Below, one piece after another: positions 6,759-27,234 of a stretch of 27,250 nt of DNA. A program made the translations under genes and the position numbers. The notes under the pieces were generated by a model. The model ran no database searches, had not been told where the DNA came from, and worked only from the letters and a program-made list of their open reading frames with translations. The DNA lies in assembly GCA_004321885.1 (NCBI GenBank), contig SCQK01000009.1, positions 1 through 27,250 on the forward strand, written 5' to 3'. Within the stretch, counting starts at the first letter, position 1. Every line of letters starts with the position of its first letter. The stretch comes from Patescibacteria group bacterium. GTDB lineage: Bacteria > Patescibacteriota > Patescibacteriia > Magasanikbacterales > GWA2-37-8.

Positions 6759-6898
6759 TTTCAGGGTTCAATAGAATCCGTGGTTAGCATTATCACTATA
6801 CCAATTTTAATAATATTTGTCAATATCACCTATCCACACCCCCTTTACTAAATGTCTTTTGAGAGATAAGATATATCCAGAAAATTACCCCCACCCAA

Positions 6899-6921
6899 CC
6901 TCCCCCTTATCAAGAGGGAGG
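6899..6921 (+). repeat. family B hairpin element (CCTCCCCC-loop-GGGAGG) supplying the gatB RBS
   Basis: 'cctcccccttatcaagagggagg'. GGGAGG lies 12 nt upstream of the gatB ATG. Confidence 0.6.
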
Positions 6922-6932
6922 AAACAAATTGT

Positions 6933-8498
6933 ATGTCAAAATATATTCCCATCATCGGCCTGGAAATACACGTGGAGCTAAAAACCAAGAGCAAAATGTT
7001 TTGCTCCTGCGCCAACAACCCGGACCGCCCGCCTCGCCCGACGAGCGGGCTCGTCGAGGCGGGCGACGCCCCAAACACCAATGTCTGCGAAATCTGTCTG
7101 GCGCACCCGGGCACCTTGCCCGTGCCGAATAAAACCGCTATTGAATGGGCCGCCAAAATCGCCACTGCCCTGGGATGCAAGCTCAACAAAGAAAGTAAAT
7201 TTGACCGCAAGCATTATTTTTACCCCGACCTGCCCAAGGGCTACCAGATTTCCCAATTTGACCAGCCCATCGGCGAGCACGGCTTTATTGAACTCCAATT
7301 TCCAGTCGGCAAAAACCCGCGCGAAGCGGCGCGCATCGGTATCACTCGCGTGCATTTGGAAGAAGACACGGCAAAGTTGACCCACGGGGCGAAGGGAGAA
7401 ACTTTGGTTGACTTCAACCGCGCCGGCGTGCCCCTGGTGGAAATCGTATCCGAGCCCGACGTGCAAAGCGCCGTTGAAGCCAAGAGCTATTGCCAGGAAC
7501 TGCAAAATATTTTTCGCTATCTCGGCGTGAGCGACGCGGACATGGAAAAAGGCCACATGCGCTGTGAGGCCAACGTGTCGGTGCAGGAAGAAGGAAAATT
7601 TACAAACGACAAGGGCGTGATAAAACCGACAGGAAAAAACAAACTAAACGCCAAAGTTGAAGTGAAAAATATAAACTCTTTCCGCGCCGTGGAAAAAGCG
7701 ATTGAATTTGAAATCAAACGCCAGACCGCCATGATAGAAAAAGGCGAATCATGGAAACAGCAGACCCGCGGCTGGGATGACGACAAGGGCGAAACGATTT
7801 TACAAAGAGAAAAAGAAACCTCGGCCGATTACCGCTACTTCCCCGAGCCCGATATTCCACCGTTTAATCCGGTTAAAATCACCGGCGACATCTCTTTGCC
7901 CGAACTGCCGGCCGCCAAACGGTCTCGCTTCCGCGACGAGTATGGTTTTTCTTATTCCGACGCCGACATCTTGGCCAGCGACGCGCACTGGGCGGCTTTT
8001 ACCGAACAAGTGATGAGCGAACTCGTTGACTGGCTGAAAACTTTATCCAAAAAAGAATCTCCGGCGCAAATCGCGCGGCTGGCCGGCGGCTGGATTACTT
8101 CCAAACTGATGGGCGCCATGGCCGAACGCAAAATTGACATTCGTATTCTGAAATTAAAGCCGGAAAATTTCGCCGAACTGGTCGCTTTGATTTACACAAA
8201 CAAAGTCAACTCCACCAACGCGCAAAAAATTCTGGCCGAGATGCTGAACTCGGGCGTGGACATGGACCCCACGCATATAATGGAAGACAAGGGCTACGGC
8301 CAAATAGCCGACGAAGGCAAACTGGGCGAAGTGGTTGATGAAGTGCTCAAGAGCCACCCTGAACAAGTGGCGCAATTCAAAGCCGGCAAAGAACCGATTT
8401 TACAATTTCTAAAAGGCATGGTAATGAAAGCGACCGAGGGCTCGGCCGACCCGCAAATGGCGGAAAAATTGCTGCGGGAGAGAATTAAAATATCCTGA
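6933..8498 (+). CDS. gatB: aspartyl/glutamyl-tRNA(Asn/Gln) amidotransferase subunit B
   Basis: 'IGLEIHVELKTKSKMFCSC...NTNVCEICLAHPGTLPVPN...FDRKHYFYPDLPKGYQISQFDQPIGEHG' are typical GatB motifs. C-terminal YqeY-like tail. Contains a roughly 14-aa in-frame insertion encoded by a GC palindrome. Confidence 0.9.
   Translation: MSKYIPIIGLEIHVELKTKSKMFCSCANNPDRPPRPTSGLVEAGDAPNTNVCEICLAHPGTLPVPNKTAIEWAAKIATALGCKLNKESKFDRKHYFYPDLPKGYQISQFDQPIGEHGFIELQFPVGKNPREAARIGITRVHLEEDTAKLTHGAKGETLVDFNRAGVPLVEIVSEPDVQSAVEAKSYCQELQNIFRYLGVSDADMEKGHMRCEANVSVQEEGKFTNDKGVIKPTGKNKLNAKVEVKNINSFRAVEKAIEFEIKRQTAMIEKGESWKQQTRGWDDDKGETILQREKETSADYRYFPEPDIPPFNPVKITGDISLPELPAAKRSRFRDEYGFSYSDADILASDAHWAAFTEQVMSELVDWLKTLSKKESPAQIARLAGGWITSKLMGAMAERKIDIRILKLKPENFAELVALIYTNKVNSTNAQKILAEMLNSGVDMDPTHIMEDKGYGQIADEGKLGEVVDEVLKSHPEQVAQFKAGKEPILQFLKGMVMKATEGSADPQMAEKLLRERIKIS
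7026..7065 (+). repeat. 40-nt GC-rich near-perfect palindrome inserted in-frame in gatB
   Basis: 'cgcccgcctcg' and 'cgaggcgggcg' are perfect 11-bp arms. Inner 'cgacgag-cggg-ctcgtcg' hairpin. Encodes 'PDRPPRPTSGLVEAGDAP' between the conserved 'KMFCSC' and 'PNTNVC'. Confidence 0.7.
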
Positions 8499-8741: not shown

Positions 8742-9893
8742 ATGTACCCAGCACGGTTAATTTTAAACACCGGCCAAGAATTTCTCGGCCTTTCACCCGC
8801 CTGGCAAAAAGGCGACTTTTACGGTTTACCCTCACACCAAAAATTTTGGTGTGAGGGCGAGGTTGTTTTTACGACCGGCATGACCGGCTATGTGGAAACT
8901 CTCACCGATCCTTCGTATGCCGGACAAATTATCGTCTTCACCTATCCGCTCATCGGCAACTACGCCGTGCCGCCGGCCAAATTCTGGGAATCGGAAAAAA
9001 TCCACGCGGCCGGAGTGGTGGTAGGCGAGGCGTGCCAGTGGCCTGATACCCCCTCCTCACCTCCCTCCCGAAACAAGTTCGGGACAGGCTCTTATAAAGG
9101 GGGAGGGACTTTGGCCGGATGGCTAAGAGAACAAAAGGTGCCTTTACTCACCGGGGTGGATACTCGCCTGCTTACCAAAACACTACGCGAGAAGGGTGCC
9201 ACGCCCGGAGCGATTACGTCTTACCCCTACCTAACCTCCCCCTTAAAAAGGGGGAGGAACAGGAGGGGGTATAATTTCTTTGACCCGAACGAAACAGATC
9301 TGGTGGCGCTGGTTTCTCCCAAAAGACCGACCACTTACGGCAAGGGGAAAAAGAGAATCATCGCCGTTGATTGCGGGATGAAAAAAAATCTGCTCCGCTC
9401 ACTCTTAAAATTACCGCTGACTATAAAAATCGTGCCGTACGACTACGATTATAACAAAGAAAAATTTGACGGCGTGTTTATCTCCAATGGCCCGGGCGAC
9501 CCGGAACGTTGCGGCCGAACGATAGAAATTCTGCGCCGCGCCATGAAAAAGAAAAAACCGATTTTCGGCGTCTGTCTGGGCAACCAGCTGTTAGCACTGG
9601 CGGCCGGAGCCAAAACCTACAAACTGCCCTTTGGCCACCGCGGACAAAATCAACCCTGCCAAGACAGCGCCACTGGCCGTTGTTATATCACCAGCCAAAA
9701 CCACGGCTACGCCGTGAACCCGGCCACCCTGCCGCCGGACTGGCGCGTGAGTTTCAAAAACTTAAACGACGATTCAGTGGAAGGCATCGGCCACAAATCA
9801 TTGCCGTTTTTCGCCGTGCAATTTCATCCCGAAGCGGCGCCCGGCCCCGCAGACACGCAGTGGCTTTTTGAAAAATTTTATGAAACTTTATAA
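8742..9893 (+). CDS. carA: carbamoyl-phosphate synthase small (glutaminase) subunit
   Basis: 'VVFTTGMTGYVETLTDPSYAGQIIVFTYPLIGNY', 'PIFGVCLGNQLLALAAGAKTYKLPFGHRGQNQP' (catalytic Cys), 'FAVQFHPEA'. Two in-frame family B element insertions. Confidence 0.9.
   Translation: MYPARLILNTGQEFLGLSPAWQKGDFYGLPSHQKFWCEGEVVFTTGMTGYVETLTDPSYAGQIIVFTYPLIGNYAVPPAKFWESEKIHAAGVVVGEACQWPDTPSSPPSRNKFGTGSYKGGGTLAGWLREQKVPLLTGVDTRLLTKTLREKGATPGAITSYPYLTSPLKRGRNRRGYNFFDPNETDLVALVSPKRPTTYGKGKKRIIAVDCGMKKNLLRSLLKLPLTIKIVPYDYDYNKEKFDGVFISNGPGDPERCGRTIEILRRAMKKKKPIFGVCLGNQLLALAAGAKTYKLPFGHRGQNQPCQDSATGRCYITSQNHGYAVNPATLPPDWRVSFKNLNDDSVEGIGHKSLPFFAVQFHPEAAPGPADTQWLFEKFYETL
9049..9108 (+). repeat. family B element (compound) in-frame in carA
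   Basis: 'cccctcctcacctccctcccgaaacaagttcgggacaggctcttataaagggggaggg' encodes 'PSSPPSRNKFGTGSYKGGG'. Contains inner hairpin TCCCGAA-acaag-TTCGGGA. Confidence 0.6.
9235..9272 (+). repeat. family B element in-frame in carA
   Basis: 'cctccccc-ttaaaaa-gggggagg-aacaggagggggtat' encodes 'SPLKRGRNRRGY'. Confidence 0.65.
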
Positions 9894-12800
9894 AGTTATA
9901 ATTCTCGGTTCCGGAGGATTGCAAATCGGCCAGGCCGGCGAGTTTGATTATTCGGGCTCCCAGGCCATCAAGGCCCTGAAAGAAGAAGGCATCAAAACCG
10001 TGCTGGTAAACCCCAACATCGCCACTGTTCAAACCGACCCAAACATGGCTGACGCGCTCTATCTTCAGCCGCTCAATTTTCAAACACTTAAAAAAATTAT
10101 CGCCAAAGAAAAACCGGACGGCATTTTGCTCGGCTTTGGCGGACAAACCGCGCTCAATCTGGGTTTGGAACTGGATGAAAAAGCCGTACTCCAAAAATAC
10201 GGCATGGCCGTGCTGGGTAGCGATACGCAAACAATACGAACAGCCGAAGACAGAAATTTATTCAAAATCGCGCTGGCGAAAATCGGAGTGAAGACTCCGA
10301 AAAGTTTTACCGCGCGCGACGTGAATGAAGCGCTGGCCGCGGGAAAACAAATCAGCTACCCCTTGATGATTCGCAGCGGCTTCTCTTTGGGCGGACTTGG
10401 TTCCGGAAAAATCGCCGACGCGCGGGAACTGAAACAACGCGCAGGCGAAGCGCTCTCCGGCGCCCCGCAAATCCTGGTGGAAGAATACCTGGGCGGCTGG
10501 AAAGAAGTGGAATACGAAGTGGTGCGCGACAGAAAAGACAACACCATTATTGTCTGCAACATGGAAAACATGGACCCGATGGGCATCCATACCGGTGAGA
10601 GCATCGTGGTGGCGCCTTCGCAGACCTTGAACAACGAACAGTATCATCGCCTGCGCGAGCTGTCCATCAAAATCGCCCGCCACCTGAAAATCATCGGCGA
10701 ATGCAACGTGCAATTCGCCTTGCACCCGAAAACCGGCGACTATCGCGTGATAGAACTCAACCCGCGCCTGTCGCGTTCATCGGCTCTGGCTTCCAAAGCC
10801 ACGGGCTATCCCCTGGCCTACATCGCGGCCAAGCTGGCCATCGGCAAACTTTTGCCTGAACTCAAAAATTCAGTCACCAAAAAAACCTCGGCCTTTTTTG
10901 AACCGGCCTTGGATTATCTGACAATAAAAATTCCGCGCTGGGACACAAACAAACTGCGCTCGGCCGAACGCTCCATCGGCTCGGAGATGAAAAGCGTGGG
11001 CGAAGTGATGGCCATTGGACGCTCGTTTCCCGAAGCATTGCAAAAAGCCGTGCGTATGCTGAATATCGGCGCCGACGGGCTAAGCGATTATCCGTTTCCC
11101 ATCGCCGAACCGAAAAAAGAAATGGAGAACGCCACCGACCGACGTTTGTTCGCGCTTTACCAATTTTTTAAAAAAGGCGGCGGCGTAAAAGAAGCCGGGC
11201 AACTTACGAGTATAAACGAATGGTTTCTGGCGCACATCAAAAACATCGCGGCGCTGGAAAAAACAATCAAAAATAAACGACTAACGCCAGCCCTGCTTTT
11301 ACAAGCCAAGCAATTCGGCTTTAGCGACGTCGGTCTGGCAAAATTAAAAAATACTGACGAGAAAAAAATCAGGCGCCTGCGCAAAAAAAACAAAATCCTG
11401 CCGTGCTTTAAACAAATAGACACCCTGGCCGGCGAATATCCGGCCGAGACGAATTATTTATACGCCACCTACCACGGCGCCGGACACGATATCGCCGCTT
11501 TGGACAAAAAACCGATCATCGTCCTCGGCTCTGGTCCGTACGCCATCGGTTCGTCGGTGGAATTTGACTGGTGCGCCGTGAACACGGCCCGCGCCCTGCG
11601 CGCCTTGGACAAAAAAACAATAATGCTCAACTCCAATCCGGAAACAGTCTCCACTGACTACGACGAATCCGACCGTTTGTATTTTGAAGAGCTGACTTTG
11701 GAGCGCGTGGCTGACATCGCTGATTTTGAAGGCGGCGCGAAGGCGTCTTTTGAATCTACACCCGGCATTGTTGTTTCGGTCGGCGGACAAATCGCCAATA
11801 AAATCGCTCTGCCGCTTTTTGAAATGGGTTATAAAATTTTAGGCACCCCGCCCGTGGCCATAGACCAGGCCGAAGACAGACAAAAATTTTCCTCACTCTT
11901 GAATAAATTAAAAATAGACCAGCCGGAATGGATTGAGTCGGGTAATTTGAGTAAAGCCAAGGCTTTCGCCAAAAATTTCGGGTATCCGGTCCTGGTGCGG
12001 CCGTCATACGTGCTCTCTGGCGCGGCCATGAACGTGTGCCCGAACGAAGATGAACTGACAAACTATCTACGTTCGGCTTCGGCCGTTTCTCCCGACCATC
12101 CGGTGGTTATTTCCAAATTTATCACCAATGCCAAAGAGTTAGACATAGACGGAGTGGCCGACAAGGGAAAAATTATAATAGAAGCGATTTGCGAACACGT
12201 GGAAAACGCGGGCGTGCACTCGGGCGACGCCACCCTGGTCTTGCCCCCGCAAAAACTTTATTTGGAAACGATTCGCCGCGCCAAAAACATCGCTCGCGCC
12301 ATCGCCAAATCACTCAAAATCACCGGGCCCTTTAACATCCAGTTCATTGCCAAGGATAACGCGCTCAAAGTGATAGAGTGCAACTTGCGCGCTTCCCGCT
12401 CTTTTCCTTTCGTATCCAAAGTGACCGGACATAATTTCATAGAACTGGCCACCAAGGCCATGCTGGGCGGTGTTGGAGTTCCTCCCCCTCTTAGGGGGAG
12501 GATAAAGGAGGGGGTATTTGAAACCCTGGAGCTCAACCACGTCGGCGTGAAGTCGCCGCAATTTTCTTACCACCGACTGAAAGGAGCCGACCCGGTGGCG
12601 CAAGTGGAAATGGCTTCCACCGGAGAGGTGGCCTGTATCGGCGGCGATTATTTGCGCGCCTTTTATTCTTCCTGGCTGGCCACGGGCAAAAATATCAGCC
12701 GCCGCCGGGCGCTTGTCACCATTGCCGATGAATGCAAACAAAAATTCTTGCCATTAGTGAAAAAAATGGACAAACAGGGCTGGGAAATATATACTACTGC

Positions 12801-13110
12801 CGGCACCCACGACTTTTTGTCGCGCCACGGAGTGGCCAGCAACTTTGTTTACAAAATCAGCGAGCAAAACAAGCCGAACGTGGAGGCAACGATTTCAGAA
12901 AAGCAAGTTGACGTAATCATTGTCATTCCGAGCGAAGCGAGGAATCTCTGTTTATCAAACGACAGCGACGGCTACAAAATTCGCCGGCTGGCCACGGACC
13001 GCCACATCCCACTTATCACCAACTCGCAAACCGCTATTTTGCTCTTGCGCTGTCTCACCGAACTTGACGCCAATAAAATGCCGATAAAATCGTGGCAAGA
13101 ATATTTTTAA
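9868..13110 (+). CDS. carB: carbamoyl-phosphate synthase large subunit
   Basis: 1080 aa. Two ATP-grasp halves ('[20 protein letters not shown]', '[20 protein letters not shown]') and a C-terminal MGS-like domain. Overlaps the carA 3' end by 26 nt. Confidence 0.95.
12481..12517 (+). repeat. family B element in-frame in carB
   Basis: 'cctccccc-tctta-gggggagg-ataaaggagggggtat' encodes '[13 protein letters not shown]'. Confidence 0.7.
12921..12946 (+). repeat. family A short hairpin element in-frame in carB
   Basis: 'tgtcattccgagcgaagcgaggaatc' encodes 'VIPSEARNL' in the MGS-like domain. Confidence 0.6.
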
Positions 13111-13191
13111 TGTCATTGCGAGGAGCGGAGCGACGAAGCAATCCCATACAATTAAGGGGATTGCCACGGCCCTGCGGGCCTCGCAATGACA
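13111..13191 (+). repeat. family A full-length palindromic element filling the carB-pyrB intergenic space
   Basis: Begins immediately after the carB TAA. Termini 'tgtcattgcgagg...cctcgcaatgaca' are 13-bp perfect inverted repeats. Inner hairpin 'gcaatccc...gggattgc'. Confidence 0.75.
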
Positions 13192-13199
13192 ATACAATT

Positions 13200-14120
13200 A
13201 TGCCAAACACACTCAAAGGCAGGGACATAATTTCCATCGCGGAACTTTCCAAGCCGGAAATTCTGCTGGTGCTAAAAAACGCGCAAGAATTAAAAAAACA
13301 CCCGCGCCCGAAACTGCTGGAAGGGCTGGTGATGGGCAGTTGTTTTTTTGAACCCAGCACGCGCACGCGCTTGTCGTTTGAAACAGCCATGCAGAAGTTG
13401 GGCGGACGGGTAATCGGCTTTGCCGACCCGGGCGTGACTTCGGCCAAGAAAGGCGAGTCGCTGTACGACGCCATAAAAATCATCGGCCAATACGTGGATG
13501 TCATCGCCATGCGCCATCCGTTGGAGGGAGCGGCGCGACGCGCGGCCGAGGCCACGGACAAACCAATCATCAACGGCGGCGACGGAGCCAACCAGCACCC
13601 CACCCAAACCCTGCTGGACTTGTTCACTATTCAAGAATGCCAGAAAAAATTAAGCAACCTTCATATCGCCATGGTCGGCGACCTGAAATATGGCCGCACC
13701 GTGCACTCGCTGGCCCAGGCGCTTACCCATTTTGGCGCCCGCCTGTATTTCGTGGCGCCCGACAGCTTGCAGATGCCCGCGTATATTTGCGATGAATTAA
13801 AAACCAAAGGCGTCAAATTCTCCATGCACAAAAAAATGGAAGAGGTAATCGGCAAAGTTGATATTTTTTACATGACCCGCATCCAGGGCGAACGTTTTGC
13901 CGACCCGATGGAGTACGAAAAAGTAAAAAACAGTTTCGTGCTCAAGGCCGACATGCTAAAAAACGCCAAACCAAACCTGAAAATCTTGCACCCCTTGCCG
14001 CGCGTGAACGAAATTGAAACAGCCATAGACAAAACAAAATTCGCCTACTATTTCCAGCAAGCGGAAAACGGGCTCTATGCCCGCCAGGCCCTGCTGGCGA
14101 TGGTGTTGGGAAAAATTTAA
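13200..14120 (+). CDS. pyrB: aspartate carbamoyltransferase catalytic subunit
   Basis: '[11 protein letters not shown]', 'HPTQTLLDL' and 'LHPLPR' motifs. Start taken at 'MPNTLKGRD' (ATG 13200), just after the element. The ORF-track 13092 start reads through the palindrome. Confidence 0.9.
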
Positions 14121-14123
14121 TAA

Positions 14124-14208
14124 TGTCATTGCGAGGCCCAAGGGGCCGAAGCAATCTCAGACAAGTAAGGGATTGCCACGTCGGCCTGCAGGCCTCCTCG
14201 CAATGACA
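14124..14208 (+). repeat. family A full-length palindromic element filling the pyrB-pyrI intergenic space
   Basis: 'tgtcattgcgagg...cctcctcgcaatgaca'. Same architecture as 13111-13191, with a different centre. Confidence 0.75.
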
Positions 14209-14216
14209 AAAATTTT

Positions 14217-14681: not shown

Positions 14682-14690
14682 AAACACCAT

Positions 14691-15857
14691 ATGAGCCGGC
14701 TCATAACTTTACCCGCTTTGATTGACCCGCACGTGCATTTTCGTACCCCGGGTTCCGAGCACAAAGAGGATTGGATTTGCGGAGCGCGCGCCGCCTTCGC
14801 CGGCGGATACACCACGGTGATTGACATGCCGAACAACAACCCGCCGGCGATTGATGAAGAGTCATTGAATAACAAAATCAAGCTCGTGGAACAACAACTG
14901 TCATTCCTGCGAAAGCAGGAAGGGAGCCCTTCGGGCTCGGAATTCATTTCTGTCCACCCATATTTTTATCTCGGGGTTACTCCCCTCCCCCTTGATAAGG
15001 GGGAGGCAGGGTGGGGGTCGGCGGTAGCCCTCAAAATGTTCATGGGTTCCAGCACCGGCAGTTTGCTGGTGGACAAATACGAAGACCAGGAAAAAATATT
15101 CGCCAAAGCCGCTGAACTTGATTTGCTGGTGGCAGTGCACGCAGAAGATGATGAAACAATAAAAAATAATCAACTGTCATTCCAGCAAAAGCTGGAATCC
15201 ATCGCCAATCCAGTCGCTCTTCACTCGCAAATCCGCTCGCGTGAGGCGGCGATAAAAGCCGTGTCGCAAGCGATTGAACTGGCGGAAAAGACCGGCGCGC
15301 GATTATATATCTGCCATATTAGCACAAAGGAAGAAGCTGAATTGGTTAAATCGGCTAAAGAGCGCGGAGCCAAAATTTATGCCGAAGTCACACCGCATCA
15401 TTTGTTTCTGAACGAAAGCGCGTATGAAACATTGGAGACAAAAGCGCAAATGAATCCGCCTCTGCGCACGGCCGCGGACCAAGCGGCGCTCTGGCAGGCG
15501 ATAAACGACGGAGTAATAGACACCATCGGCACCGACCACGCTCCGCATACTTTGGAAGAAAAAAATCAACCATACCCCAAATCGCCTTCGGGCGTGCCCG
15601 GCATTGAGACATGTTTGCCGCTATTGCTCAACGCGTACAATCAGGGTAAAATCAGTTTAGAGAAAATAGTGGAATTATGCCGGACAAATCCGCAAAAAAT
15701 ATTCCGTTTGCCTGATAACAGTGACGAGGTGATTGTGGATTTGGATTTGGAAAAAGAGGTAAAAAATGAGAATTTAAAAACTAAATGCGGCTGGTCGCCC
15801 TTTGCTGGGTGGAATCTAAAGGGGTGGCCGATAAAAACGATAATTATGAAAAAGTAA
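14691..15857 (+). CDS. pyrC: dihydroorotase
   Basis: 'LIDPHVHFRTPG' metal-binding motif, 'GTDHAPH'. Contains three in-frame element insertions. The stop codon lies inside the left terminal repeat of a MITE-like element. Confidence 0.85.
   Translation: MSRLITLPALIDPHVHFRTPGSEHKEDWICGARAAFAGGYTTVIDMPNNNPPAIDEESLNNKIKLVEQQLSFLRKQEGSPSGSEFISVHPYFYLGVTPLPLDKGEAGWGSAVALKMFMGSSTGSLLVDKYEDQEKIFAKAAELDLLVAVHAEDDETIKNNQLSFQQKLESIANPVALHSQIRSREAAIKAVSQAIELAEKTGARLYICHISTKEEAELVKSAKERGAKIYAEVTPHHLFLNESAYETLETKAQMNPPLRTAADQAALWQAINDGVIDTIGTDHAPHTLEEKNQPYPKSPSGVPGIETCLPLLLNAYNQGKISLEKIVELCRTNPQKIFRLPDNSDEVIVDLDLEKEVKNENLKTKCGWSPFAGWNLKGWPIKTIIMKK
14899..14921 (+). repeat. family A short hairpin in-frame in pyrC
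   Basis: 'tgtcattcctgcgaaagcaggaa' is TTCCTGC-GAAA-GCAGGAA. Encodes 'SFLRKQE'. Followed by a small hairpin 'gagccc-ttc-gggctc'. Confidence 0.7.
14982..15018 (+). repeat. family B element in-frame in pyrC
   Basis: 'cccctccccc-ttgataa-gggggagg-cagggtgggggt' encodes 'PLPLDKGEAGWG'. Confidence 0.7.
15175..15198 (+). repeat. family A short hairpin in-frame in pyrC
   Basis: 'tgtcattccagcaaaagctggaat' is ATTCCAGC-AAAA-GCTGGAAT. Encodes 'LSFQQKLE'. Confidence 0.7.
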
Positions 15858-16014: not shown

Positions 16015-16028
16015 TCACATCCATTTTT

Positions 16029-16982
16029 ATGAAACATCTAATCTCCCTAAAGGAACAAACAAAAGAAGACCTGCTGGAAATTTTGGATTTAGCAAAAAAA
16101 GTTAAAGCCACATACAAGGCCGGTGAGACGATGGAGCCATTAAAAAACAAAACCCTGCTCATGCTTTTTCAAAAAAGCTCCACGCGCACGCGCCTGTCGT
16201 TTGAGGCCGGCATAACCGAACTGGGCGGACACGCCATTTTTCTGGACAGCCGCGCCACGCAATTTTCGCTCACTGATTTCGGCGATGAAATAAAAGCCGT
16301 AATGCGCTTTGGCGACATCCTGATGTTTCGGGCCATGAAAGCGGCGGACGTGGAAAAGGCGGCGGGCTTCAATCAGATTCCGGTGATAGACGGTTGCAGT
16401 GAAAAATATCACCCGTGCCAGGCCTTGGGAGACATTTTGACAATGAGTGAGCATGCCAATGGACTGGAAAACGTGAAAAAAATCACTTGGCTGGGAATTG
16501 AAAACAACGTCTCTAACACCCTGACGCTGGCCGGCGCCAAACTGGGAATTGAAGTGACCATCGCCGCGCCCGAAGCCAACCCGGCCAGCGTGGACGCGGA
16601 GTTAAACGCCCAGGCCTCTGCCGTCGGCAAAGTGACACGCACTTTGAATTTGGCCGAAGCGCTGGCTGGCGCGAATTTCATCCACACCGACACCTGGATG
16701 GATATGGAATTTTTTTCCGACGGAAAAGTGAAGCCGCAATTTGAAGCCGAATACGAACGGCGCAAACGGGTGTTCACGCCTTTTCAACTAAACGCGGGCT
16801 TAATAAACACCCACGCCCCGCAAGCGAAAATTATGCACTGCATGCCGTGTCATGTGGGCTATGAAATTTCACGCGACGCCATAGACCATCCCAATTCAAT
16901 AATTTTTGACCAGGCGGAAAATCGCAAACACATCCAAAAAGCGATTATTCTTTGGCTACTTGGTATTCCCTCCCCTTTATAA
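16029..16982 (+). CDS. ornithine-carbamoyltransferase-family transcarbamylase paralog (substrate uncertain)
   Basis: 'STRTRLSFE', 'HPCQALGDILT', 'HCMPC' (OTC HCLP-type) and a C-terminal 'SIIFDQAENRKH' closely like OTCase. The ornithine-binding 'DxxxSMG' is 'DTWMDME'. Confidence 0.75.
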   Translation: MKHLISLKEQTKEDLLEILDLAKKVKATYKAGETMEPLKNKTLLMLFQKSSTRTRLSFEAGITELGGHAIFLDSRATQFSLTDFGDEIKAVMRFGDILMFRAMKAADVEKAAGFNQIPVIDGCSEKYHPCQALGDILTMSEHANGLENVKKITWLGIENNVSNTLTLAGAKLGIEVTIAAPEANPASVDAELNAQASAVGKVTRTLNLAEALAGANFIHTDTWMDMEFFSDGKVKPQFEAEYERRKRVFTPFQLNAGLINTHAPQAKIMHCMPCHVGYEISRDAIDHPNSIIFDQAENRKHIQKAIILWLLGIPSPL

Positions 16983-17004
16983 GGGGAGGGTTAGGGTGGG
17001 GTAT
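16968..17004 (+). repeat. family B element spanning the OTC-paralog stop and the pyrD RBS
   Basis: 'ccctcccc-tttataa-ggggaggg-ttagggtggggtat'. The TAA stop of the upstream gene is inside the hairpin loop. GGGTGGGG lies 5 nt before the pyrD ATG. Confidence 0.7.
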
Positions 17005-17005
17005 T

Positions 17006-17917: not shown

Positions 17918-17921
17918 ATGT

Positions 17922-18067: not shown

Positions 18068-18072
18068 AACGT

Positions 18073-18945: not shown

Positions 18946-18961
18946 GTCCAAAGCCAATTAT

Positions 18962-19006: not shown

Positions 19007-19082
19007 GAAACGAACCGAGGGACCAAGTGACCCAAGCCCTTCCGATTTGGCGAAAGGGCTGAGGCACCAAGGATCCCAGGGC

Positions 19083-19730
19083 CTACTTGCCGCGAGGAAG
19101 GAGATAGGAGGCGCCGAAGCCGTAGACAACCCAGCGGACGTCCAGCACCCAGCGAGCGCCGACCCAGGAGAGACAGGCCACGTAGAGGCCGCCACGCCGG
19201 CCGCGCAAAAGCGTGCCCGGCAGGACGATGATCTTGTCCTGCATCTCCTTCGGGATCTCGGCCTGGCACTCCAGCATACGCTTGCCATCCACCAGGCCGT
19301 AGTTGGCCTTGAGGACGACGGCGCGGGCGCGCATGACCTCGCCGTTGACATAGCCCGGGTCATCGGGCTCGAGGAAGGACACATACTCCAAGTCCTTCAC
19401 CTCGAACTGCGACGGGGCCACATCCTCCACCACCTCCCACTTGCGCTTCTTGCCTGCCTCGTCCTCGTACTCGGGGATGAGGTCGGCGGCGAGCAACTCG
19501 GACGGGAGCTGGTCGCGCTTGATCGATGCCGCCACGCTTTCGCCGTTTTCCTCGCCGATCGGCTCCAGCTTCAGCCGGAGCTTGCCGGCGCGAAACAGCT
19601 CCACGTTCTGCGCGCCCGTCTCACATCCGCCGAACTCCGCCCACAGCTTGAGGATCATGGCCCAGATCTGCTTCCCTGTCAGACCCTCCAGCACGGCCTC
19701 CAGTGTCTTCCCTTCCACTCTCGAACTCAT
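19083..19730 (-). CDS. hypothetical protein in a GC-rich (about 62% GC) inserted segment
   Basis: ATG with AAGGAG 7 nt upstream. Balanced E/K/D/L composition, unlike the Ala/Arg/Leu-rich overlapping frames. Terminator downstream. Interrupts pyrK...pyrE. Confidence 0.5.
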   Translation of the reverse strand: MSSRVEGKTLEAVLEGLTGKQIWAMILKLWAEFGGCETGAQNVELFRAGKLRLKLEPIGEENGESVAASIKRDQLPSELLAADLIPEYEDEAGKKRKWEVVEDVAPSQFEVKDLEYVSFLEPDDPGYVNGEVMRARAVVLKANYGLVDGKRMLECQAEIPKEMQDKIIVLPGTLLRGRRGGLYVACLSWVGARWVLDVRWVVYGFGASYLLPRGK

Positions 19731-19895
19731 GGCTGTTCTCCTTTCCGGCGCCTCGCCAGAATGGCAATTTGCCCCGCCCCGGGGCTCGGGTTTTTATGCT
19801 AAAAATAACAAAGAGCTAACAGCGATTTATATCACAACATTACTGCTTCTGTCAAGCTAAACACCGTCACAACCGCCATATCCTTTCACAAACCC

Positions 19896-19928: not shown

Positions 19929-19938
19929 TAATTTTTTA

Positions 19939-19947: not shown

Positions 19948-19975
19948 ATTGGCAAGGAATTCTTCGGCCTAAACT

Positions 19976-21031: not shown

Positions 21032-21037
21032 TTTTTT

Positions 21038-21634: not shown

Positions 21635-21640
21635 CAAATA

Positions 21641-21754
21641 CCCCTCCCCCACCCTCCCCTTATAAAGGGGAGGGTGCAATTTTCCTCCCCCTTTATAAGG
21701 GGGAGGCTCGCCACCACACCAAATGCTTTGGTGTGGTGGCGAGGAGGGGGTAAA
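21641..21754 (+). repeat. two tandem family B hairpins plus a 14-bp perfect hairpin and SD tail in the pyrE-pyrF spacer
   Basis: 'ccctcccc-ttataaa-ggggaggg', 'cctccccc-tttataa-gggggagg', 'ctcgccaccacacc-aaatgcttt-ggtgtggtggcgag' (21707-21743), then 'gagggggtaaaaatt' before ATG. Confidence 0.7.
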
Positions 21755-21758
21755 AATT

Positions 21759-23121: not shown

Positions 23122-24156
23122 TTAAAGTTCTACCCTCACCGAGAGACGGAAACCGCGCTTGGGATCCGGATGCCCGGCATCGTCCCCGTCAAACCCCGCC
23201 TGGGAAAAGCCCGGAACGAAGCACGCGTTCGGCACATCGCCGACTGAAACCGGCAAGTTGATAAAACGCGTCCAGGTATTGCTGTCTATTGGTCTAAGCG
23301 TGGTTGGTTGGGAACCGGTCGGGAATTTTTTTTTGATTAACTGGCTCTGAATGGTTTGCAGGGCGCCGTATTCGTGGGGGTTGGTAATATGGGCCTGCGA
23401 CAGCTTAGAGGCCGCGCGTTCCCGGTTTATAGCGGCGAATTCCGTTTTTTGATCATCCACTGTTTTATTGCAGGTGCGGGGGTCTGGTTTTTGACTGGGA
23501 TTCATCATTGCTATGTAGGGCCTGTCTGGAACGGCTTCCACCAACTCGGCGGCTTTGTCGTTGATAAGCCCGACGAAATGATTCCATTCCAGAAAGGCAT
23601 CGTTCACGTCTCGCTCCTGGCTTTCTTTAATCCAAATCGGCTTAAAGGCCTTTTTGAATTGCTCAACCGTGGTGTTTAGCTGGGTTGTCTTATCCGGCAT
23701 AAATATGGGAATGGAGCCGGCCGCGATCTCCTGTTCTATTGTTTTTCGCTTTTCGGGCGTGAGACGGCCAAAATCAGCCGTGCCGATATTGCCAGCCCAG
23801 GCCTCAAGATTCATAGCACGGTACATTTGTTGGTTGTCTTGCCGGACCTGCATTAAATCCCAGGTCATTTCTTTGTGTTCGTTGGCAATTGGATTTTGCT
23901 CAATACCCGGAATGCCGCTTTCAAGCAGGGCTTCGCGGAAGGGGTTGGTGGCGTTATGGACAGTAAACCGGCCCAAACGCTCTCTTTCTAATTGAGCGAG
24001 TTCATCCGGTGAAACTGTCCGGTACGGGCCACCATTGGCGTTTTGCGGAATATCTGATGGCTCGTCTGGCTGAGGCTGCTCTCCGACAATGCGGCGGTGA
24101 AGCCGATCGACTATTCCTTCGGCGATTCCCTCAATTCTTCCTATTCTTCGTGGCAT
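23122..24156 (-). CDS. hypothetical protein (no recognisable motifs)
   Basis: 344-aa ORF between nif3 and ruvA on the same strand. Normal composition. Start abuts a family B element. Confidence 0.5.
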   Translation of the reverse strand: MPRRIGRIEGIAEGIVDRLHRRIVGEQPQPDEPSDIPQNANGGPYRTVSPDELAQLERERLGRFTVHNATNPFREALLESGIPGIEQNPIANEHKEMTWDLMQVRQDNQQMYRAMNLEAWAGNIGTADFGRLTPEKRKTIEQEIAAGSIPIFMPDKTTQLNTTVEQFKKAFKPIWIKESQERDVNDAFLEWNHFVGLINDKAAELVEAVPDRPYIAMMNPSQKPDPRTCNKTVDDQKTEFAAINRERAASKLSQAHITNPHEYGALQTIQSQLIKKKFPTGSQPTTLRPIDSNTWTRFINLPVSVGDVPNACFVPGFSQAGFDGDDAGHPDPKRGFRLSVRVEL

Positions 24157-24164: not shown

Positions 24165-24250
24165 ACCCCCTCCTCTGTCCTCCACCTAAAAGGGGGAGAA
24201 AAGTGACAGTGTTACCCCTCCCTCGCCCTCCCCTTATAAAGGGGAGGGAA
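24165..24250 (+). repeat. compound family B element in the nif3-hypothetical spacer
   Basis: 'cccccctcctctgtcctccacctaaaagggggag...cccctccctcgccctcccc-ttataaa-ggggaggg'. Confidence 0.6.
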
Positions 24251-25215: not shown

Positions 25216-25233
25216 AATATGTACCTAACTTTT

Positions 25234-25270
25234 CTCTCCCCTTTATAAGGGGAGAGACAGAGAGGGGTAA
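25234..25270 (+). repeat. family B element upstream of nif3
   Basis: 'ctctcccc-tttataa-ggggagag-acagagaggggtaat'. Confidence 0.65.
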
Positions 25271-25523: not shown

Positions 25524-25559
25524 AAAAAGAATCCCCGCCTTGGGCGGGGTTCTTTTTTT
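25524..25559. terminator. bidirectional intrinsic terminator CCCCGCC-ttg-GGCGGGG flanked by A-tract and T-tract
   Basis: 'aaaaagaatccccgccttgggcggggttcttttttt'. Serves the convergent small ORF (+) and efp (-). Confidence 0.7.
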
Positions 25560-26118
25560 ACGCTCTGGTGGAGTATTCGCCCGTTTCGGTATTTACCAGA
25601 ATCTCTTCGCCTTCTTTTATGAATATCGGGGCCTGAATTTTTAATCCGTTTTCCAAAGTGATTTCTTTGGTGACGTTGCCCGAAGCGCTGTCGCCCTTGA
25701 CCGCCGGCGGCGCGTCAATCACCTTGTATTGAATCTTTTTCGGTATCTGCGCGGAAACCGGCCGGCCCTCGTACAGCCCCACGACCACGTCTATCCCTTC
25801 TTTCAGATACTTGGCCTCGTCGCCGAGCAAATCGTTGTTCATCTCTATCTGCTCATAGGTGCTCATGTTCATGAAAGCGAAATTGGCGCCGCTTTTGTAC
25901 AAATACTGCATAGAATGAAACTCCACCTCCACGATATCCACGCTTTCGCTGGTTTTGTAGGTTATTTCAATCACCTTGCCCGAGGCCAAACTTTTCATCC
26001 GCACGCGCACAAAAGCCGCGCCCTTGCCAGGGTTGACGTGCTGAAAATCCACCACGACAAACAAATCATTCTGGTGCCTGATGACTACCCCTTTTCTGAT
26101 TTCGCTGGTAGGGGCCAT
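25558..26118 (-). CDS. efp: translation elongation factor P
   Basis: 'VDFQHVNPGKGAAFVRVRMK' (modifiable Lys in the PGKG loop). Three OB/KOW-like domains. 186 aa. Confidence 0.9.
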   Translation of the reverse strand: MAPTSEIRKGVVIRHQNDLFVVVDFQHVNPGKGAAFVRVRMKSLASGKVIEITYKTSESVDIVEVEFHSMQYLYKSGANFAFMNMSTYEQIEMNNDLLGDEAKYLKEGIDVVVGLYEGRPVSAQIPKKIQYKVIDAPPAVKGDSASGNVTKEITLENGLKIQAPIFIKEGEEILVNTETGEYSTRA

Positions 26119-26130: not shown

Positions 26131-26241
26131 AATGTCAAAATCCAAATTTCCAATATCAAATCAATTTTTAATGTCAAATTTCAAATGTCCAATTTGACAT
26201 TTGGATTTTTGTCATTGATTTGACATTGGAAATTTGACATT
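26131..26241. repeat. array of 9-11-nt 'TTTGACATT' repeats: three in - orientation, then three or four in + orientation
   Basis: 'aatgtcaaa' at 26131, 26170 and 26184 (variant). 'tttgacatt' at 26193, 26218 and 26233. 'tttgtcatt' at 26207. Near-palindromic centre 'aaatgtccaatttgacattt'. Lies in the efp upstream region and runs into the epmA 3' end. Confidence 0.7.
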
Positions 26242-27234
26242 AATATTCTCTATTTGGTCTTTCACGCTTTGAAACATTACCTCGTTTATATCCCTGGCTC
26301 CGGTAAACAATAATACCATGCGGTCAACCCCCAAGGCAATACCGGCCATGTCTTGGCGCGCTGCCTCGGGCAAGCCGGCAATCGCGGCGATAAAATCCGG
26401 GTCAACGCCCCAAACCGGCTTGCCCGCCCCCAGCCGCTTGTTTTTGTCTTCCTCCAAACGCTTTTTTTGCTCGGCCGCGTCGGTCAGTTCGCCAAAGGCG
26501 TTGGCCAATTCCAAACCGCCAATATACAATTCAAACCTCTCGGCGTAACGTTGGTCATGTTCGCACAAACGATTGAGCGAGGTCATCTGCTGGGGATAAT
26601 CATACACAAAAACCGGCCACTCGGCGCCCAGCTTTGGTTCTATTTCATTCAAAAAAATCTTAAAAAACAAATCTTCATAGGCGTCGCGCGGGTCCGCGGC
26701 GAAACCGCGCGCCAAAACCAGCTCGCGCATTTTTTCCAGCTCCAAATATTCATCCAAATTCACGCCAAGATATTTTTGCCACACTTCTTTCATGCTTAGC
26801 CGGTCCCAAACCCCCTCCTTTATTCTCCCCCTTGGGAGAGGAAGTTGAGAAGCAACAAACTTAAACAAATTTTCCGTGTCGTCCATTATCTCGGTCAGGG
26901 TTCCGGGGGCGCGGTACCACTCAATCATGGTAAATTCGGTGTTGTGCGTGCGGCCAAACTCTTCGTAGTCGCGAAAAACCTTGCCAATTTCAAAAATTTT
27001 TTCATAACCCGCAGCCAACAATTTTTTCAAGCCGTATTCGGGCGAAGTGCGCAGATAAAATTGTTCGGTCACGCCGTTTGGAGCGTGGAAAACCGCTGAC
27101 ACCGGGTTCAAATACGGCTCCTGGCTGGCCAAACGCACAGCCACGGGCGTGTCGGTCTCCACAAAACCCGCGCGCCAAAAAAATTCCCGGATTAACTTTA
27201 TTATCTGAATTCGCGCGTCATATATCCCGCGCAA
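26212..27234 (-). CDS. epmA: EF-P lysine beta-lysyltransferase (class II lysyl-tRNA-synthetase-like, GenX/PoxA)
   Basis: 'TSPEYGLKKLLAAGYEKIFEIGKVFRDYEEFGRTHNTEFTMIEWYRA' (class II motifs 1 and 2), 'GVDRMVLL'. Directly upstream of efp. Contains an in-frame family B element. The last roughly 13 aa are encoded by the repeat array. Confidence 0.8.
   Translation of the reverse strand: MRGIYDARIQIIKLIREFFWRAGFVETDTPVAVRLASQEPYLNPVSAVFHAPNGVTEQFYLRTSPEYGLKKLLAAGYEKIFEIGKVFRDYEEFGRTHNTEFTMIEWYRAPGTLTEIMDDTENLFKFVASQLPLPRGRIKEGVWDRLSMKEVWQKYLGVNLDEYLELEKMRELVLARGFAADPRDAYEDLFFKIFLNEIEPKLGAEWPVFVYDYPQQMTSLNRLCEHDQRYAERFELYIGGLELANAFGELTDAAEQKKRLEEDKNKRLGAGKPVWGVDPDFIAAIAGLPEAARQDMAGIALGVDRMVLLFTGARDINEVMFQSVKDQIENINVKFPMSNQ
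26808..26846 (-). repeat. family B element in-frame in epmA (- orientation)
   Basis: - strand 'cctctccc-aag-ggggagaa-taaaggagggggt' encodes '[13 protein letters not shown]'. Same tail as the carB copy. Confidence 0.7.

Follow-up and report, generated by a model that had tools for sequence, protein, structure and literature searches.

Why do two unrelated enzymes encoded on one Patescibacteria contig, the large subunit of carbamoyl-phosphate synthase (CarB) and the EF-P lysine aminoacylase (EpmA), carry the same short peptide, and is that peptide of use to either of them? An earlier note on this DNA had proposed that both proteins received an identical inserted peptide, P(L)PRGRIKEGV, from copies of one selfish element in the same phase, and that the peptide is either tolerated or a common interaction or modification site. 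The window, by which we mean the whole stretch of DNA analysed, is the 27,250-nt Patescibacteria contig SCQK01000009.1 (GCA_004321885.1), which comes from a metagenome-assembled genome. The features at the two loci are as follows.

9868..13110, + strand: carB, carbamoyl-phosphate synthase large subunit (Pfam CPSase_L_D1/D2/D3 and MGS; PDB alignments to CPS1 and E. coli CPS)
12479..12515, + strand: intact triplex-motif (TM) copy in carB, TTCCTCCCCCT-CTT-AGGGGGAGGAT-A-AAGGAGGGGGT
25558..26118, - strand: efp, downstream of epmA
26212..27234, - strand: ORF of epmA/genX, EF-P lysine aminoacylase; the gene runs to 27250 and its 5' end lies off the contig (Pfam tRNA-synt_2 and EF-P; PDB 3g1z and 3a5z)
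26808..26846, - strand: decayed copy of the carB subfamily in epmA, CTTCCTCTCCC-AA-GGGGGAGA-ATAAA-GGAGGGGGT

The shared peptide and its two loops

The 23-nt core AGGGGGAGRATAAAGGAGGGGGT matches exactly at the carB and epmA sites, with one base differing between the two, and none of 100 dinucleotide shuffles contained a match, so that chance is not an expected source. This confirms that the two enzymes obtain the peptide from the same DNA element in the same phase. The codons concerned are 12481-12516 (+) in carB (GTT CCT CCC CCT CTT AGG GGG AGG ATA AAG GAG GGG GTA TTT, residues 871-884 including flanks) and 26808-26844 (-) in epmA (CTT CCT CTC CCA AGG GGG AGA ATA AAG GAG GGG GTT TGG, residues 131-143 including flanks). 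Strict identity is confined to the 8 residues RGRIKEGV; the proline-rich lead is not the same (CCTCCCCCTCTT versus CCTCTCCCAA) because the first arm and loop of the element differ between the carB and epmA copies, and the proposed identity of the longer peptide does not extend to it. Both copies belong to a subfamily whose second loop is ATAAA, and they share orientation and frame. The common phase is real, yet it is weak evidence: by our reading of the sequence, five of the six frames across the constant part of the subfamily are open, and only the one reading GGA TAA is closed. The argument that the same phase is forced is only partly true, as the carB copy differs from that constant part in having its other two forward frames closed by stops in loop 1 and loop 2.

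The two genes do not record the same history. In carB, the spacing between the 'AML' and 'ETLEL' landmarks is 8 residues in 120 of 120 listed homologs and 18 in the window, a net gain of 10 amino acids, and here the word "inserted" holds. In epmA, the 'xxKL' to 'WDR' spacing is about 17 residues in 108 of the 120 listed homologs and 11 in the window; a native segment was therefore replaced rather than simply added to, and the description does not carry over. The epmA case does not look like a simple insertion, and its sequence suggests either a more complex history or a mechanism that replaces.

Structure prediction, which the note had put forward as a check, places both segments as low-confidence coils between conserved secondary-structure elements. 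In AlphaFold models the CarB segment is a predicted coil with a pLDDT of about 56, and EpmA 131-143 is a predicted coil in which pLDDT falls below 50 at residues 135-137. The lengths of the two loops vary. The CarB loop is longer in the E. coli and human enzymes (PDB alignments), and that of EpmA has about 5 amino acids in E. coli and about 17 in CPR bacteria; in 12 of the 120 listed EpmA homologs its length is non-standard, and most of these carry assorted repeat-derived peptides. The same epmA codon boundary holds TM copies in P0024 and P0026; P0024 occurs on 5 ENA and NCBI contigs, and similar inserts are present in P0010, P0086 and P0026. The NCBI protein match for the window's own EpmA is P0001 (100% identity, 'GenX, partial'). 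RGRIKEGV itself is conserved in neither family, occurring in 0 of 120 listed CarB and 0 of 120 listed EpmA homologs.

A three-armed repeat dispersed through the window

The element is about 36 nt long and consists of a pyrimidine arm, a loop, a purine arm, a second loop and a third arm in mirror symmetry to the purine arm. On account of that third arm, which the note does not mention, it falls among the intrastrand-triplex repeats, a class that has been described before. Class II of the ITxF definition (PMC4666352) comprises a Watson-Crick hairpin whose purine stem is joined in antiparallel sense by a third stem through G*G-C, A*A-T or T*A-T triplets; the stem measures 8-15 nt and tolerates no more than 1 mismatch, and each of the two loops has 1-6 nt. 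By that definition the sequence of the carB copy (TTCCTCCCCCTCTTAGGGGGAGGATAAAGGAGGGGGT, strand 5'-3') reads as a class II, purine-motif intrastrand triplex: an ITxF-like scan, taking the loops as 3 and 1 nt, counted 11 triplets and 1 mismatch; parsed instead with CTT and ATAAA as its loops, the copy has 9 triplets and no mismatch; and the computed RNA hairpin has an energy of about -25.6 kcal/mol. In the epmA copy the subfamily's purine arm, second loop and third arm are kept, whereas the first arm is truncated and the hairpin decayed. It is absent from the ITxF-like scan matches in the window, and its best manual fit, TCTCCC/GGGAGA/GGAGGG, yields 6 triplets with 1 mismatch, which is below the ITxF definition because of the truncated first arm; we read it as a decayed member of the subfamily.

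A repeat search of the 27-kb contig recovered at least 12 family copies (about 13), roughly one per 2 kb. Five lie in frame within genes (two in carA and one each in carB, pyrC and epmA), and all others occupy intergenic spacers. The ITxF-like definition retrieves 9 copies in the window, with 10-12 triplets each, against 0.017 per dinucleotide shuffle. The copies beyond carB and epmA are as follows.

6886..6921, - strand: intergenic TM copy in the spacer between a sigma-factor gene and gatB (repeat search and ITxF-like scan); on the + strand, purine arm GAGGGAGG lies 11 nt upstream of the gatB ATG (6933)
9047..9110, - strand: second carA copy, in reverse orientation, peptide DTPSSPPSRNKFGTGSYKGGG, about +9 aa; an additional 22-nt hairpin (CCCGAAACAAGTTCGGG...) is nested within its first loop
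9222..9272, motifs on both strands: double-flanked, fully palindromic TM copy in carA, peptide SYPYLTSPLKRGRNRRGYN, +12 aa versus human CPS1; hairpin -34.4 kcal/mol, z -4.5
14983..15018, + strand: TM copy in pyrC (dihydroorotase), peptide TPLPLDKGEAGWG
16967..17003, + strand: canonical TM copy CCCTCCCCTTTATAAGGGGAGGGTTAGGGTGGGGTA, equal to the Nostoc consensus; its loop provides the TAA stop of the OTCase gene, and its third arm ends just upstream of the pyrD ATG (17006)
21638..21674, - strand: intergenic TM copy in the pyrE/pyrF spacer (ITxF-like scan)
21682..21752, + strand: TM copy with a perfect 34-nt hairpin nested between purine arm and third arm; -51.1 kcal/mol, z -7.8; third arm GAGGAGGGGGTA lies 8 nt upstream of the pyrF ATG (21759)
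24165..24201, - strand: degenerate TM copy with arm AGGTGGAGG, 3 mismatches to the core; third arm GAGGAGGGGGT lies 9 nt upstream of the ATG of ORF 23122..24156(-)
24213..24249, - strand: intergenic TM copy 3' of a NIF3-like gene (ITxF-like scan)
25233..25270, + strand: variant TM copy TCTCTCCCCTTT-A-TAAGGGGAGAGA-C-AGAGAGGGGTAA, its arms changed and their mirror symmetry kept; another CPR bacterium (P0026) has a near-identical variant in its epmA loop

In several intergenic copies a G-rich arm is thus found 4-11 nt from a start codon, where a Shine-Dalgarno sequence would lie, and this hints at co-option. Within carB and epmA, no in-frame start is suitably spaced after the Shine-Dalgarno-like third arm, and an internal translation start was discarded. 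No tRNAs were found in the window, and an Rfam search at E<=1 gave only four sub-threshold chance hits, away from the carB and epmA segments, and none of them explains the repeats.

The three-arm architecture is maintained well beyond this contig. In 943 kb of loci, a mirror of the purine arm describes the third arm better than a direct repeat does in 127 cases and worse in 6, and on this count an alternative-hairpin or attenuator design, in which the third arm would repeat the second, was rejected. The mirror relation covaries across cyanobacterial, CPR and gammaproteobacterial loci, with compensated variants such as GGGGAGAGA/AGAGAGGGG and GGAGAGGG/GGGTGAGG, and opposite an A of the purine arm the third arm has T or A. 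The canonical sequence GGGGAGGGTTAGGGTGGGG is also a textbook G-quadruplex motif, but a quadruplex reading was rejected, since variants incapable of a three-tetrad quadruplex, such as GGGGAGAGA-C-AGAGAGGGG and the carB/epmA subfamily with its G tracts of 5, 2, 2 and 5, keep the mirror symmetry. For the E. coli element TM_ECO, NMR favoured a triplex over a quadruplex (PMC4666352).

The canonical hairpin was recovered at more than 118 genome loci, nearly all with the same third arm, in Nostoc, Chamaesiphon, Microcoleus, Tychonema, Aliivibrio, Serratia, Nomurabacteria and Zambryskibacteria. The core of the carB/epmA subfamily is present on more than 120 metagenome contigs, where 78 of 134 copies fall outside long ORFs. 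Copies internal to real genes there use another frame, which reads GEDKGGG; ORFs in the RGRIKEGV frame are few and carry the copy within about 36 residues of the ORF end, and these copies are therefore probably outside real genes. Other metagenomes hold in-frame copies in class I aminoacyl-tRNA synthetases, a PMT glycosyltransferase and a GH1 enzyme. The literature searched contained nothing relevant by way of a CPR-specific account of these repeats.

Familiar vehicles of dispersal do not fit. Terminal inverted repeats and target-site duplications, as expected of a MITE or cut-and-paste transposon, are lacking: among 83 distinct copies of the subfamily, flank conservation ends at the module ends, and flanking direct repeats are no commoner than in shuffled pairings. 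The copies begin with TT/CC and end with GGGGT(A), without the GTAG/CGTC tag of RAYT-associated REP/REPIN elements, and neither a transposase-like Pfam match nor a RAYT gene was found on the contig. A phage vector was rejected as well, the canonical hairpin appearing in only 1 viral contig in an IMG/VR scan.

Tolerated by-product, tag or structure

Taken together, we consider it highly probable that the shared peptide is a passive by-product of a dispersed, tolerated repeat of the triplex class, which proliferated and inserted into or overwrote loops, and is not a functional tag. The pyrimidine and purine arms would pair into a hairpin, followed by a short loop and the third G-rich arm; because the third arm mirrors the purine arm, it is predicted to fold back antiparallel onto it within a single DNA strand, which would give a purine-motif triple helix of the triplets listed above. 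The repeat would have proliferated in this Patescibacteria genome, with most copies settling in short intergenic spacers and some inserting into, or overwriting, length-variable surface loops of conserved enzymes, where only copies that left an open frame and a working protein would survive. The codons of the C-rich arm specify prolines and those of the G-rich arms Arg, Gly and Glu, and RGRIKEGV recurs in both reading frames because the two copies belong to the same ATAAA subfamily and use the same one of its five open frames. We infer that the peptides are translated and neutral, and that the copies arose by insertion. The tolerated half of the earlier proposal is thus the one we favour, in the form of tolerated repeat DNA in loops of variable length.

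The other half, in which P(L)PRGRIKEGV would be a functional module for interaction, localisation or modification carried between proteins by the repeat, strikes us as very improbable. An identical Arg/Lys/Glu-rich string of 8 residues in the predicted exposed loops of two enzymes is what such a module would look like, and a few metagenomic ORFs use the same frame. Those occurrences lie near ORF ends and probably outside real genes, the internal cases being in the GEDKGGG frame; sharing of the frame amounts to roughly a 1-in-5 coincidence, and the peptide is present in 0 of 240 listed homologs. The other in-frame copies on the contig encode peptides unrelated to RGRIKEGV (SYPYLTSPLKRGRNRRGYN and DTPSSPPSRNKFGTGSYKGGGT in carA, TPLPLDKGEAGWG in pyrC), and the EpmA loop accepts many unrelated repeat-derived peptides. 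Even less credence attaches to the idea that the segments are artefacts or are removed, whether through mis-assembly at a repeat, as pseudogenes or as a spliced intein or intron-like element, although short-read assemblers can be misled by repeats, the contig derives from a metagenome-assembled genome, and it is the sole record of this exact EpmA. Long ORFs stay open through all five genic copies with conserved sequence on both sides, and independent assemblies (P0024, P0010, P0086, P0026) show comparable in-frame copies at the same EpmA loop. Removal, which the note had named as an outcome that would overturn its view, finds no purchase: at 12 residues (36 nt) the segment is far below the size of an intein or a group I/II intron, and Rfam has no match there. 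The evidence thus offers no support for a functional tag, intein or intron.

A role at the level of the nucleic acid, for which in-frame copies would be retained inside genes, is unlikely, though less so than a role of the peptide. Variants of this idea include a stable mRNA hairpin with an internal, Shine-Dalgarno-like AGGAGG that would pause ribosomes at a domain boundary, and a DNA triplex on the non-template strand that would modulate transcription or replication or create a local instability hotspot. In the carB copy the triplex-motif architecture is perfect and the hairpin has about -25 kcal/mol, the copy falls between the second ATP-grasp and the MGS/allosteric domains, intergenic copies often set a G-rich arm 4-11 nt from a start codon, about 17 native residues were lost alongside the epmA copy, and TM loci in E. 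coli have been tied to genomic instability (PMC4666352). Against this, the hairpin arm of the epmA copy has been lost, and the structure is therefore not maintained there; among the listed homologs of the two genes, none has kept a copy at the site, and neither gene has an in-frame start at Shine-Dalgarno distance. Earlier work in E. coli saw no promoter, terminator or expression effect of the elements, and RNA is reported not to adopt purine-motif triplexes (PMC4666352).

For the DNA itself, "junk" may be too dismissive a word: that 35-nt modules are near-identical across phyla, with their mirror symmetry preserved, implies some selective or mechanistic constraint. A bolder and rather doubtful extension is that the TM module is an active, structure-dependent mobile or gene-converting element of an undescribed kind, spreading through a single-strand triplex intermediate. 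It would move within genomes and across phyla by template switching at forks or with the help of a host-encoded enzyme, and might in addition reshape protein loops and provide ribosome-binding sites. Several observations speak for this idea. The 35-nt sequence is essentially identical in Nostoc, Aliivibrio, Serratia and CPR bacteria, and compensating changes keep both the mirror and the complement symmetry of the three arms. The modules have neither target-site duplications nor inverted termini and accept other hairpins into their loops. One EpmA codon boundary is occupied in at least 3 CPR lineages, and native codons can be overwritten.

These findings join two hitherto separate literatures, that of intrastrand-triplex repeats, which are reported to be strictly intergenic in E. 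coli, and that of selfish repeats translated within essential genes, for which the Rickettsia palindromic elements are the paradigm. In a streamlined CPR genome, such repeats can form whole intergenic spacers, rewrite enzyme loops, and supply stop codons and Shine-Dalgarno-like sequences. CPR peptides such as PAPIRGGxEGGV are then to be read as repeat footprints rather than motifs, and repeat-derived peptides can distort homology searches and gene calling. Mirror covariation across phyla is evolutionary evidence of constraint on the three-arm architecture, and it makes the mechanism of spread a tractable question.

Comparison with known repeats

In-frame residence has precedents. Rickettsia palindromic elements (RPEs; Ogata et al. 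2000) are found in frame in protein-coding genes, as summarised in the background of PMC3733652. The likeness is one of behaviour: a dispersed palindrome occupies intergenic DNA as well as in-frame sites of functional, conserved genes, lengthens the proteins by a short peptide where this is tolerated, and places the same element-derived peptide in unrelated proteins. Compared by description only, RPEs are some 100-150 bp long and specific to Rickettsia, and they are not known to be related in sequence or to have a mirror-repeat third arm. The GTAG/CGTC-tagged REPs of Di Nocera et al. 2013 are palindromes of 20-40 bp that are mostly extragenic, with a minority wholly within ORFs of known proteins, including tRNA synthetases, and their ends sometimes give stop codons, as the TM loop does for OTCase (PMC3733652). 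The present repeats differ from them in having neither the tag nor a RAYT gene on the contig, and REPs are not characterised by a third mirror arm. The SDRs of Nostoc, likened here by description only, were reportedly described by Elhai and colleagues in 2008 as hairpin-forming repeats of 21-27 nt in heterocystous cyanobacteria; they are said to insert into one another and into sequence that is otherwise conserved, and no protein that mobilises them is known. At the Nostoc loci recovered, the TM module adjoins a second CCCCCC/GGGGGG hairpin.

The nearest relatives are the BoxC/PIT/TM_ECO elements (BoxC/PIT, Hoyne et al. 2000, as cited in PMC4666352). Holder et al. 2015 (NAR 43:10126; PMC4666352) define the motif as CCCTCNCCC-N3-6-GGGNGAGGG-N3-GGGNGAGGG with a TTA second loop; TM_ECO oligonucleotides form a triplex by CD and NMR, in vivo evidence in E. 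coli is negative or ambiguous, and intrastrand triplex motifs occur in large numbers in Enterobacteria and cyanobacteria. The likeness covers the order of parts (C-rich arm, 3-6-nt loop, G-rich arm, short second loop, second G-rich arm), the purine-motif triplet rules, the TTA second loop of the canonical window copy, a length of about 36-37 nt, many dispersed similar copies in single and palindromic double forms, the absence of an associated transposase, and abundance in cyanobacteria and some Enterobacteria. The window arms, CCCTCCCC(T)/(A)GGGGAGGG/GGGTGGGG or CCTCCCCC/GGGGGAGG/GGAGGGGG, depart from that consensus, with CCCTCCCC/CCTCCCCC in place of CCCTCNCCC; judged by its arms, the family is a sibling of TM_ECO rather than TM_ECO/BoxC sensu stricto. 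It differs further in its CPR host genome, its very high density and the nested hairpins of some copies, and whereas TM_ECO in E. coli is reported as 'always located intergenically' (PMC4666352), 5 of about 13 copies here are predicted to be translated within conserved enzymes.

Two copies of one element in carB and epmA

The earlier note held that copies of one DNA element in carB and epmA encode an identical inserted peptide. Both copies belong to a family of triplex motifs (TMs) and are located as follows.

12481-12516, + strand: TM copy in carB, CCT CCC CCT CTT AGG GGG AGG ATA AAG GAG GGG GTA, residues 872-883
9868..13110, + strand: carB host ORF
26844-26806, - strand: TM copy in epmA/genX, CTT CCT CTC CCA AGG GGG AGA ATA AAG GAG GGG GTT TGG, residues 131-143
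26212..27234, - strand: epmA/genX host ORF, cut off by the contig end

A 23-nt core, AGGGGGAGRATAAAGGAGGGGGT, matches exactly at both sites, and 0 of 100 dinucleotide shuffles gave a match, so the observation that one element underlies both peptides is correct. A third, degenerate site (24165-24187) has 3 mismatches. The strictly identical peptide is RGRIKEGV; the proline-rich leads are unlike owing to differences in the first arm and loop.

Repeat searches return at least 12 related TM copies in the window, each built from a pyrimidine arm (CCCTCCCC or CCTCCCCC), a loop (typically TTTATAA) and a complementary purine arm, followed by a 1-5-nt spacer and a third G-rich arm with a GGGGT(A) end. 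Five are ORF-internal (two in carA and one each in carB, pyrC and epmA), and the remaining copies are intergenic. One carA copy is double-flanked; the other is reversed, with a small hairpin, CCCGAAACAAGTTCGGG, nested in loop 1 (9072-9093). The intergenic copy at 21682-21752, upstream of pyrF, holds a 34-nt perfect palindrome, CTCGCCACCACACCAAATGCTTTGGTGTGGTGGCGAG (21707-21741), between its second and third arms.

Under a definition like ITxF, the triplex-motif definition of PMC4666352 (8-15-nt stems, 1-6-nt loops and no more than 1 mismatched triplet), the window contains 9 motifs with 10-12 triplets, versus 0.017 per dinucleotide shuffle. This definition captures the carB copy and excludes the epmA copy, which retains the purine arm, second loop and third arm; since its first arm is truncated, the epmA copy reads as a decayed TM member.

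TM copies also act as gene punctuation (16967-17006; 21741-21761; 24156-24176 (-); 6912-6935). In the copy at 16967-17003, the loop TAA is the stop of an OTCase-like gene, and the element also encodes the final residues of that gene's product, IPSPL. G-rich TM arms precede the starts of pyrD, pyrF, ORF 23122..24156 and gatB by 4-11 nt, in the Shine-Dalgarno position.

Host genes, protein loops and other translated repeats

Other genes and ORFs of the window include these.

SNF2 helicase-methyltransferase fusion, sigma-70 factor and gatB
8742-22520: complete de novo pyrimidine operon (carA, carB, pyrB, pyrI, pyrC, OTCase-like gene, pyrD, pyrK, pyrE, pyrF), with a Fic gene mid-operon
19047..19802, + strand, and 19083..19730, - strand: overlapping ORFs between pyrK and the Fic-domain gene, inside the operon
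ruvA, NIF3-like gene, efp and epmA

The window is one whole contig (27,250 nt) of an NCBI MAG that carries the label 'Patescibacteria group bacterium'. Nucleotide biosynthesis is usually missing from bacteria of the candidate phyla radiation (CPR). The window EpmA is closest to Candidatus Magasanikbacteria proteins (~70% identity). The closest CarB fragments (~64% identity) are labelled Chlamydiae, Saccharimonadia or gammaproteobacteria rather than Magasanikbacteria, which suggests horizontal acquisition of the pyrimidine operon or a binning issue. The long overlapping ORFs sit at a local G+C peak (19001-20000, 0.59 vs ~0.50), and a Pfam scan of the + strand ORF gave no match. Dense A/T-rich inverted and direct repeats at 26117-26243 (ATTTGACATTGGAAATTTGACATT and relatives; I5, I16, I20, D6) span the efp-epmA junction and overlap the end of the epmA ORF; a search of Rfam with this cluster returned only miRNA matches at chance level.

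The spacing from 'AML' to 'ETLEL' in CarB is 8 residues in 120 of 120 listed homologs (e.g., GKHKPKPY) and 18 in the window, a net gain of 10 residues at the element; the loop is longer and unrelated in human CPS1 and, by our own reading, in E. coli CPS. From 'xxKL' to 'WDR' in EpmA, the standard is ~17 residues (108 of 120 listed homologs), with ~5 in E. coli and 11 in the window. All 11 are element-encoded, so that here the element replaces native residues; the description of the peptide as inserted thus holds for CarB and not for EpmA. Structure prediction places both segments in low-pLDDT coil. AlphaFold modelling of the last 380 residues of CarB (mean pLDDT 84.9) gives a coil for the segment (fragment residues 167-191, pLDDT ~56) between a helix and a strand, before the MGS-like allosteric domain; in the EpmA model (mean pLDDT 75.4), residues 131-143 are coil, with pLDDT <50 at 135-137.

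The other 12 of the 120 listed EpmA homologs are off-standard at this loop, mostly through repeat-derived peptides of several families. Three homologs (P0024, P0010, P0086) have TM copies at the same codon boundary (CCCGCCCCTATAAGGGGAGGGACAGAGGGTGGGGT), and another, P0026, carries TCTCCCCTATTAGGGGAGAGACAGAGAGGGGT, nearly the window variant at 25233-25270. Because the loop gathers unrelated repeats too, the recurrence is better accounted for by loop tolerance than by target specificity.

A second repeat family, the imperfect palindrome TGTCATTGCGAGG...CGAAGCAATC (13101-13201, 14121-14171, 18426-18476), is intergenic at carB/pyrB and pyrB/pyrI and in frame in pyrK, where the insert is SVIARSVATKQSQ (~+7 aa vs PDB homologs); the EpmA loop of homolog P0038 reads SLRGGARATTKQSPG, a related peptide. 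A third, TGTCATTCCTGCGAAAGCAGGAAT, occurs at 14894-14925, 15170-15201 and 18613-18644 (plus ~18650-18680), with two in-frame copies in pyrC, LSFLRKQEGS (+13 aa) and LSFQQKLES, and one in pyrK, SVIPAKAGIH then LDARFHGHD. With the TM, TGTCATTGCGAGG and TGTCATTCCTGCGAAAGCAGGAAT families all in frame, the enzymes of this single operon are predicted to contain translated copies from no fewer than three unrelated families of short repeats. At two or three fixed loops, many CPR EpmA proteins (P0008, P0025, P0038, P0076, P0080, P0093, P0097) have inserts of low-complexity, repeat-like sequence (PASAKASAGKAG, LRTANCALRTAN, CHSESPIRGEESLS...). Translation of short repeats thus seems general to CPR proteomes rather than peculiar to this contig.

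Origin of the shared peptide

The best-supported reading is that a dispersed triplex-motif repeat has colonised this genome and that the shared peptide is a by-product. A TM copy would persist inside a gene only if its frame is open and the protein tolerates it. As read from the sequence, the constant part of the carB/epmA subfamily (TM copies with second loop ATAAA) has a single closed frame among its six, GGA TAA. Read forward, the open frames encode (R)GRIKEGV and GEDKGGG; read in reverse, they encode PLLYPPP, TPSFILP and PPPLSSP; with five of six frames open, two independent in-frame copies would share orientation and frame about 1 time in 5. For the carB copy, stops TAG (loop 1) and TAA (loop 2) leave the observed forward frame as the only one possible.

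The earlier note had weighed tolerated repeat DNA against a shared functional tag. The identity of the peptide itself is the sole support for a tag, other coding TM copies on the contig read differently and give unrelated peptides, and tolerance is favored. In metagenomes, 78 of 134 subfamily copies lie outside long ORFs, and the RGRIKEGV cases, within ~36 residues of an ORF end, are probably outside real genes. Clearly internal copies use the GEDKGGG frame in two class I aminoacyl-tRNA synthetases and one PMT glycosyltransferase, and a reverse frame in a GH1 glycosidase. In-frame TM copies thus recur, and RGRIKEGV does not. Genic copies may yet have a role at the nucleic-acid level, such as pausing or instability, but two findings weaken this reading: the epmA copy has decayed, and orthologs do not conserve the copies. 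That the segments are an artefact, intein or intron is contradicted by intact and conserved host ORFs, the small size of the segment, the absence of an Rfam match, and similar inserts in independent assemblies.

Distribution and relation to known triplex motifs

An exact scan for CCCTCCCCTTWATAAGGGGAGGG, with one genome per species, found at least 118 loci; among the matches listed, most are in Nostoc, Chamaesiphon, Microcoleus and Tychonema, and others are in Aliivibrio, Serratia, an uncultured gammaproteobacterium, and CPR Nomurabacteria and Zambryskibacteria. After the hairpin, nearly all of these loci have TTAGGGTGGGGTA or a close variant, and this yields the 35-nt module also seen in the window copy at 16967-17003. 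The subfamily core GGGGGAGRATAAAGGAGGGGGT occurs in at least 120 metagenome contigs, and the canonical hairpin in one viral contig only in IMG/VR. Around 83 distinct subfamily copies, flank conservation stops at the module ends, and no target-site duplication was seen. TM density among related CPR contigs is patchy: the epmA surroundings hold 0 motifs in 20 kb for homolog P0004 and 4 in 21 kb for P0024, and the window has 9 strict motifs (at least 12 with degenerate and nested copies) in 27 kb.

The third arm mirrors the purine arm, e.g., GGGGAGGG/GGGTGGGG, GGGGGAGG/GGAGGGGG and GGGGAGAGA/AGAGAGGGG. Across the window and 123 loci taken from genomes (943 kb), the mirror fit exceeded the direct-repeat fit in 127 cases and fell below it in 6. 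In many distinct variants both arms have changed in a compensating manner, with purine-arm A opposed by T or A. The predicted arm pairing is what an antiparallel purine-motif triple helix requires (G*G-C, T*A-T, A*A-T).

We found no earlier description of high TM density in a CPR genome, of triplex motifs translated inside core enzymes, of explicit cross-phyla mirror covariation of TM arms, or of other hairpins nested in TM loops. Palindromic repeats translated within conserved genes are already known, as PMC3733652 describes for Rickettsia RPEs and REPs in ORFs.

The element class itself is also already known: Holder et al. 2015 described "intrastrand triplex motifs" (PMC4666352), with the PIT elements of Hoyne et al. 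2000 and the older BoxC repeats of E. coli as precursors. Its TM_ECO consensus is CCCTCNCCC-N3-6-GGGNGAGGG-N3-GGGNGAGGG, with TTA or CCG as second loop; in vitro, it forms a very stable triplex by CD and NMR, with G-quadruplex formation excluded, and 3610 were counted in 262 proteobacterial genomes (PMC4666352). Triplex motifs of the G/C-rich type likewise occur at very high abundance in Microcystis, Anabaena and Nostoc, and TM loci show more between-strain rearrangement than control loci (PMC4666352). One scanned metagenome locus (L137, 1047 (+)) carries CCCTCGCCC-TTGAG-GGGAGAGGG-ATA-GGGTGAGGG, near the TM_ECO consensus, on a contig with four tandemly spaced carB/epmA-subfamily copies (the L136/L137 arrays), which shows one genome harbouring sibling families of triplex motifs together. 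In E. coli, TM_ECO is "always located intergenically", without a link to transposons, phages or plasmids (PMC4666352), whereas the TM copies of the window are, as predicted from the ORFs, also translated inside core enzymes.
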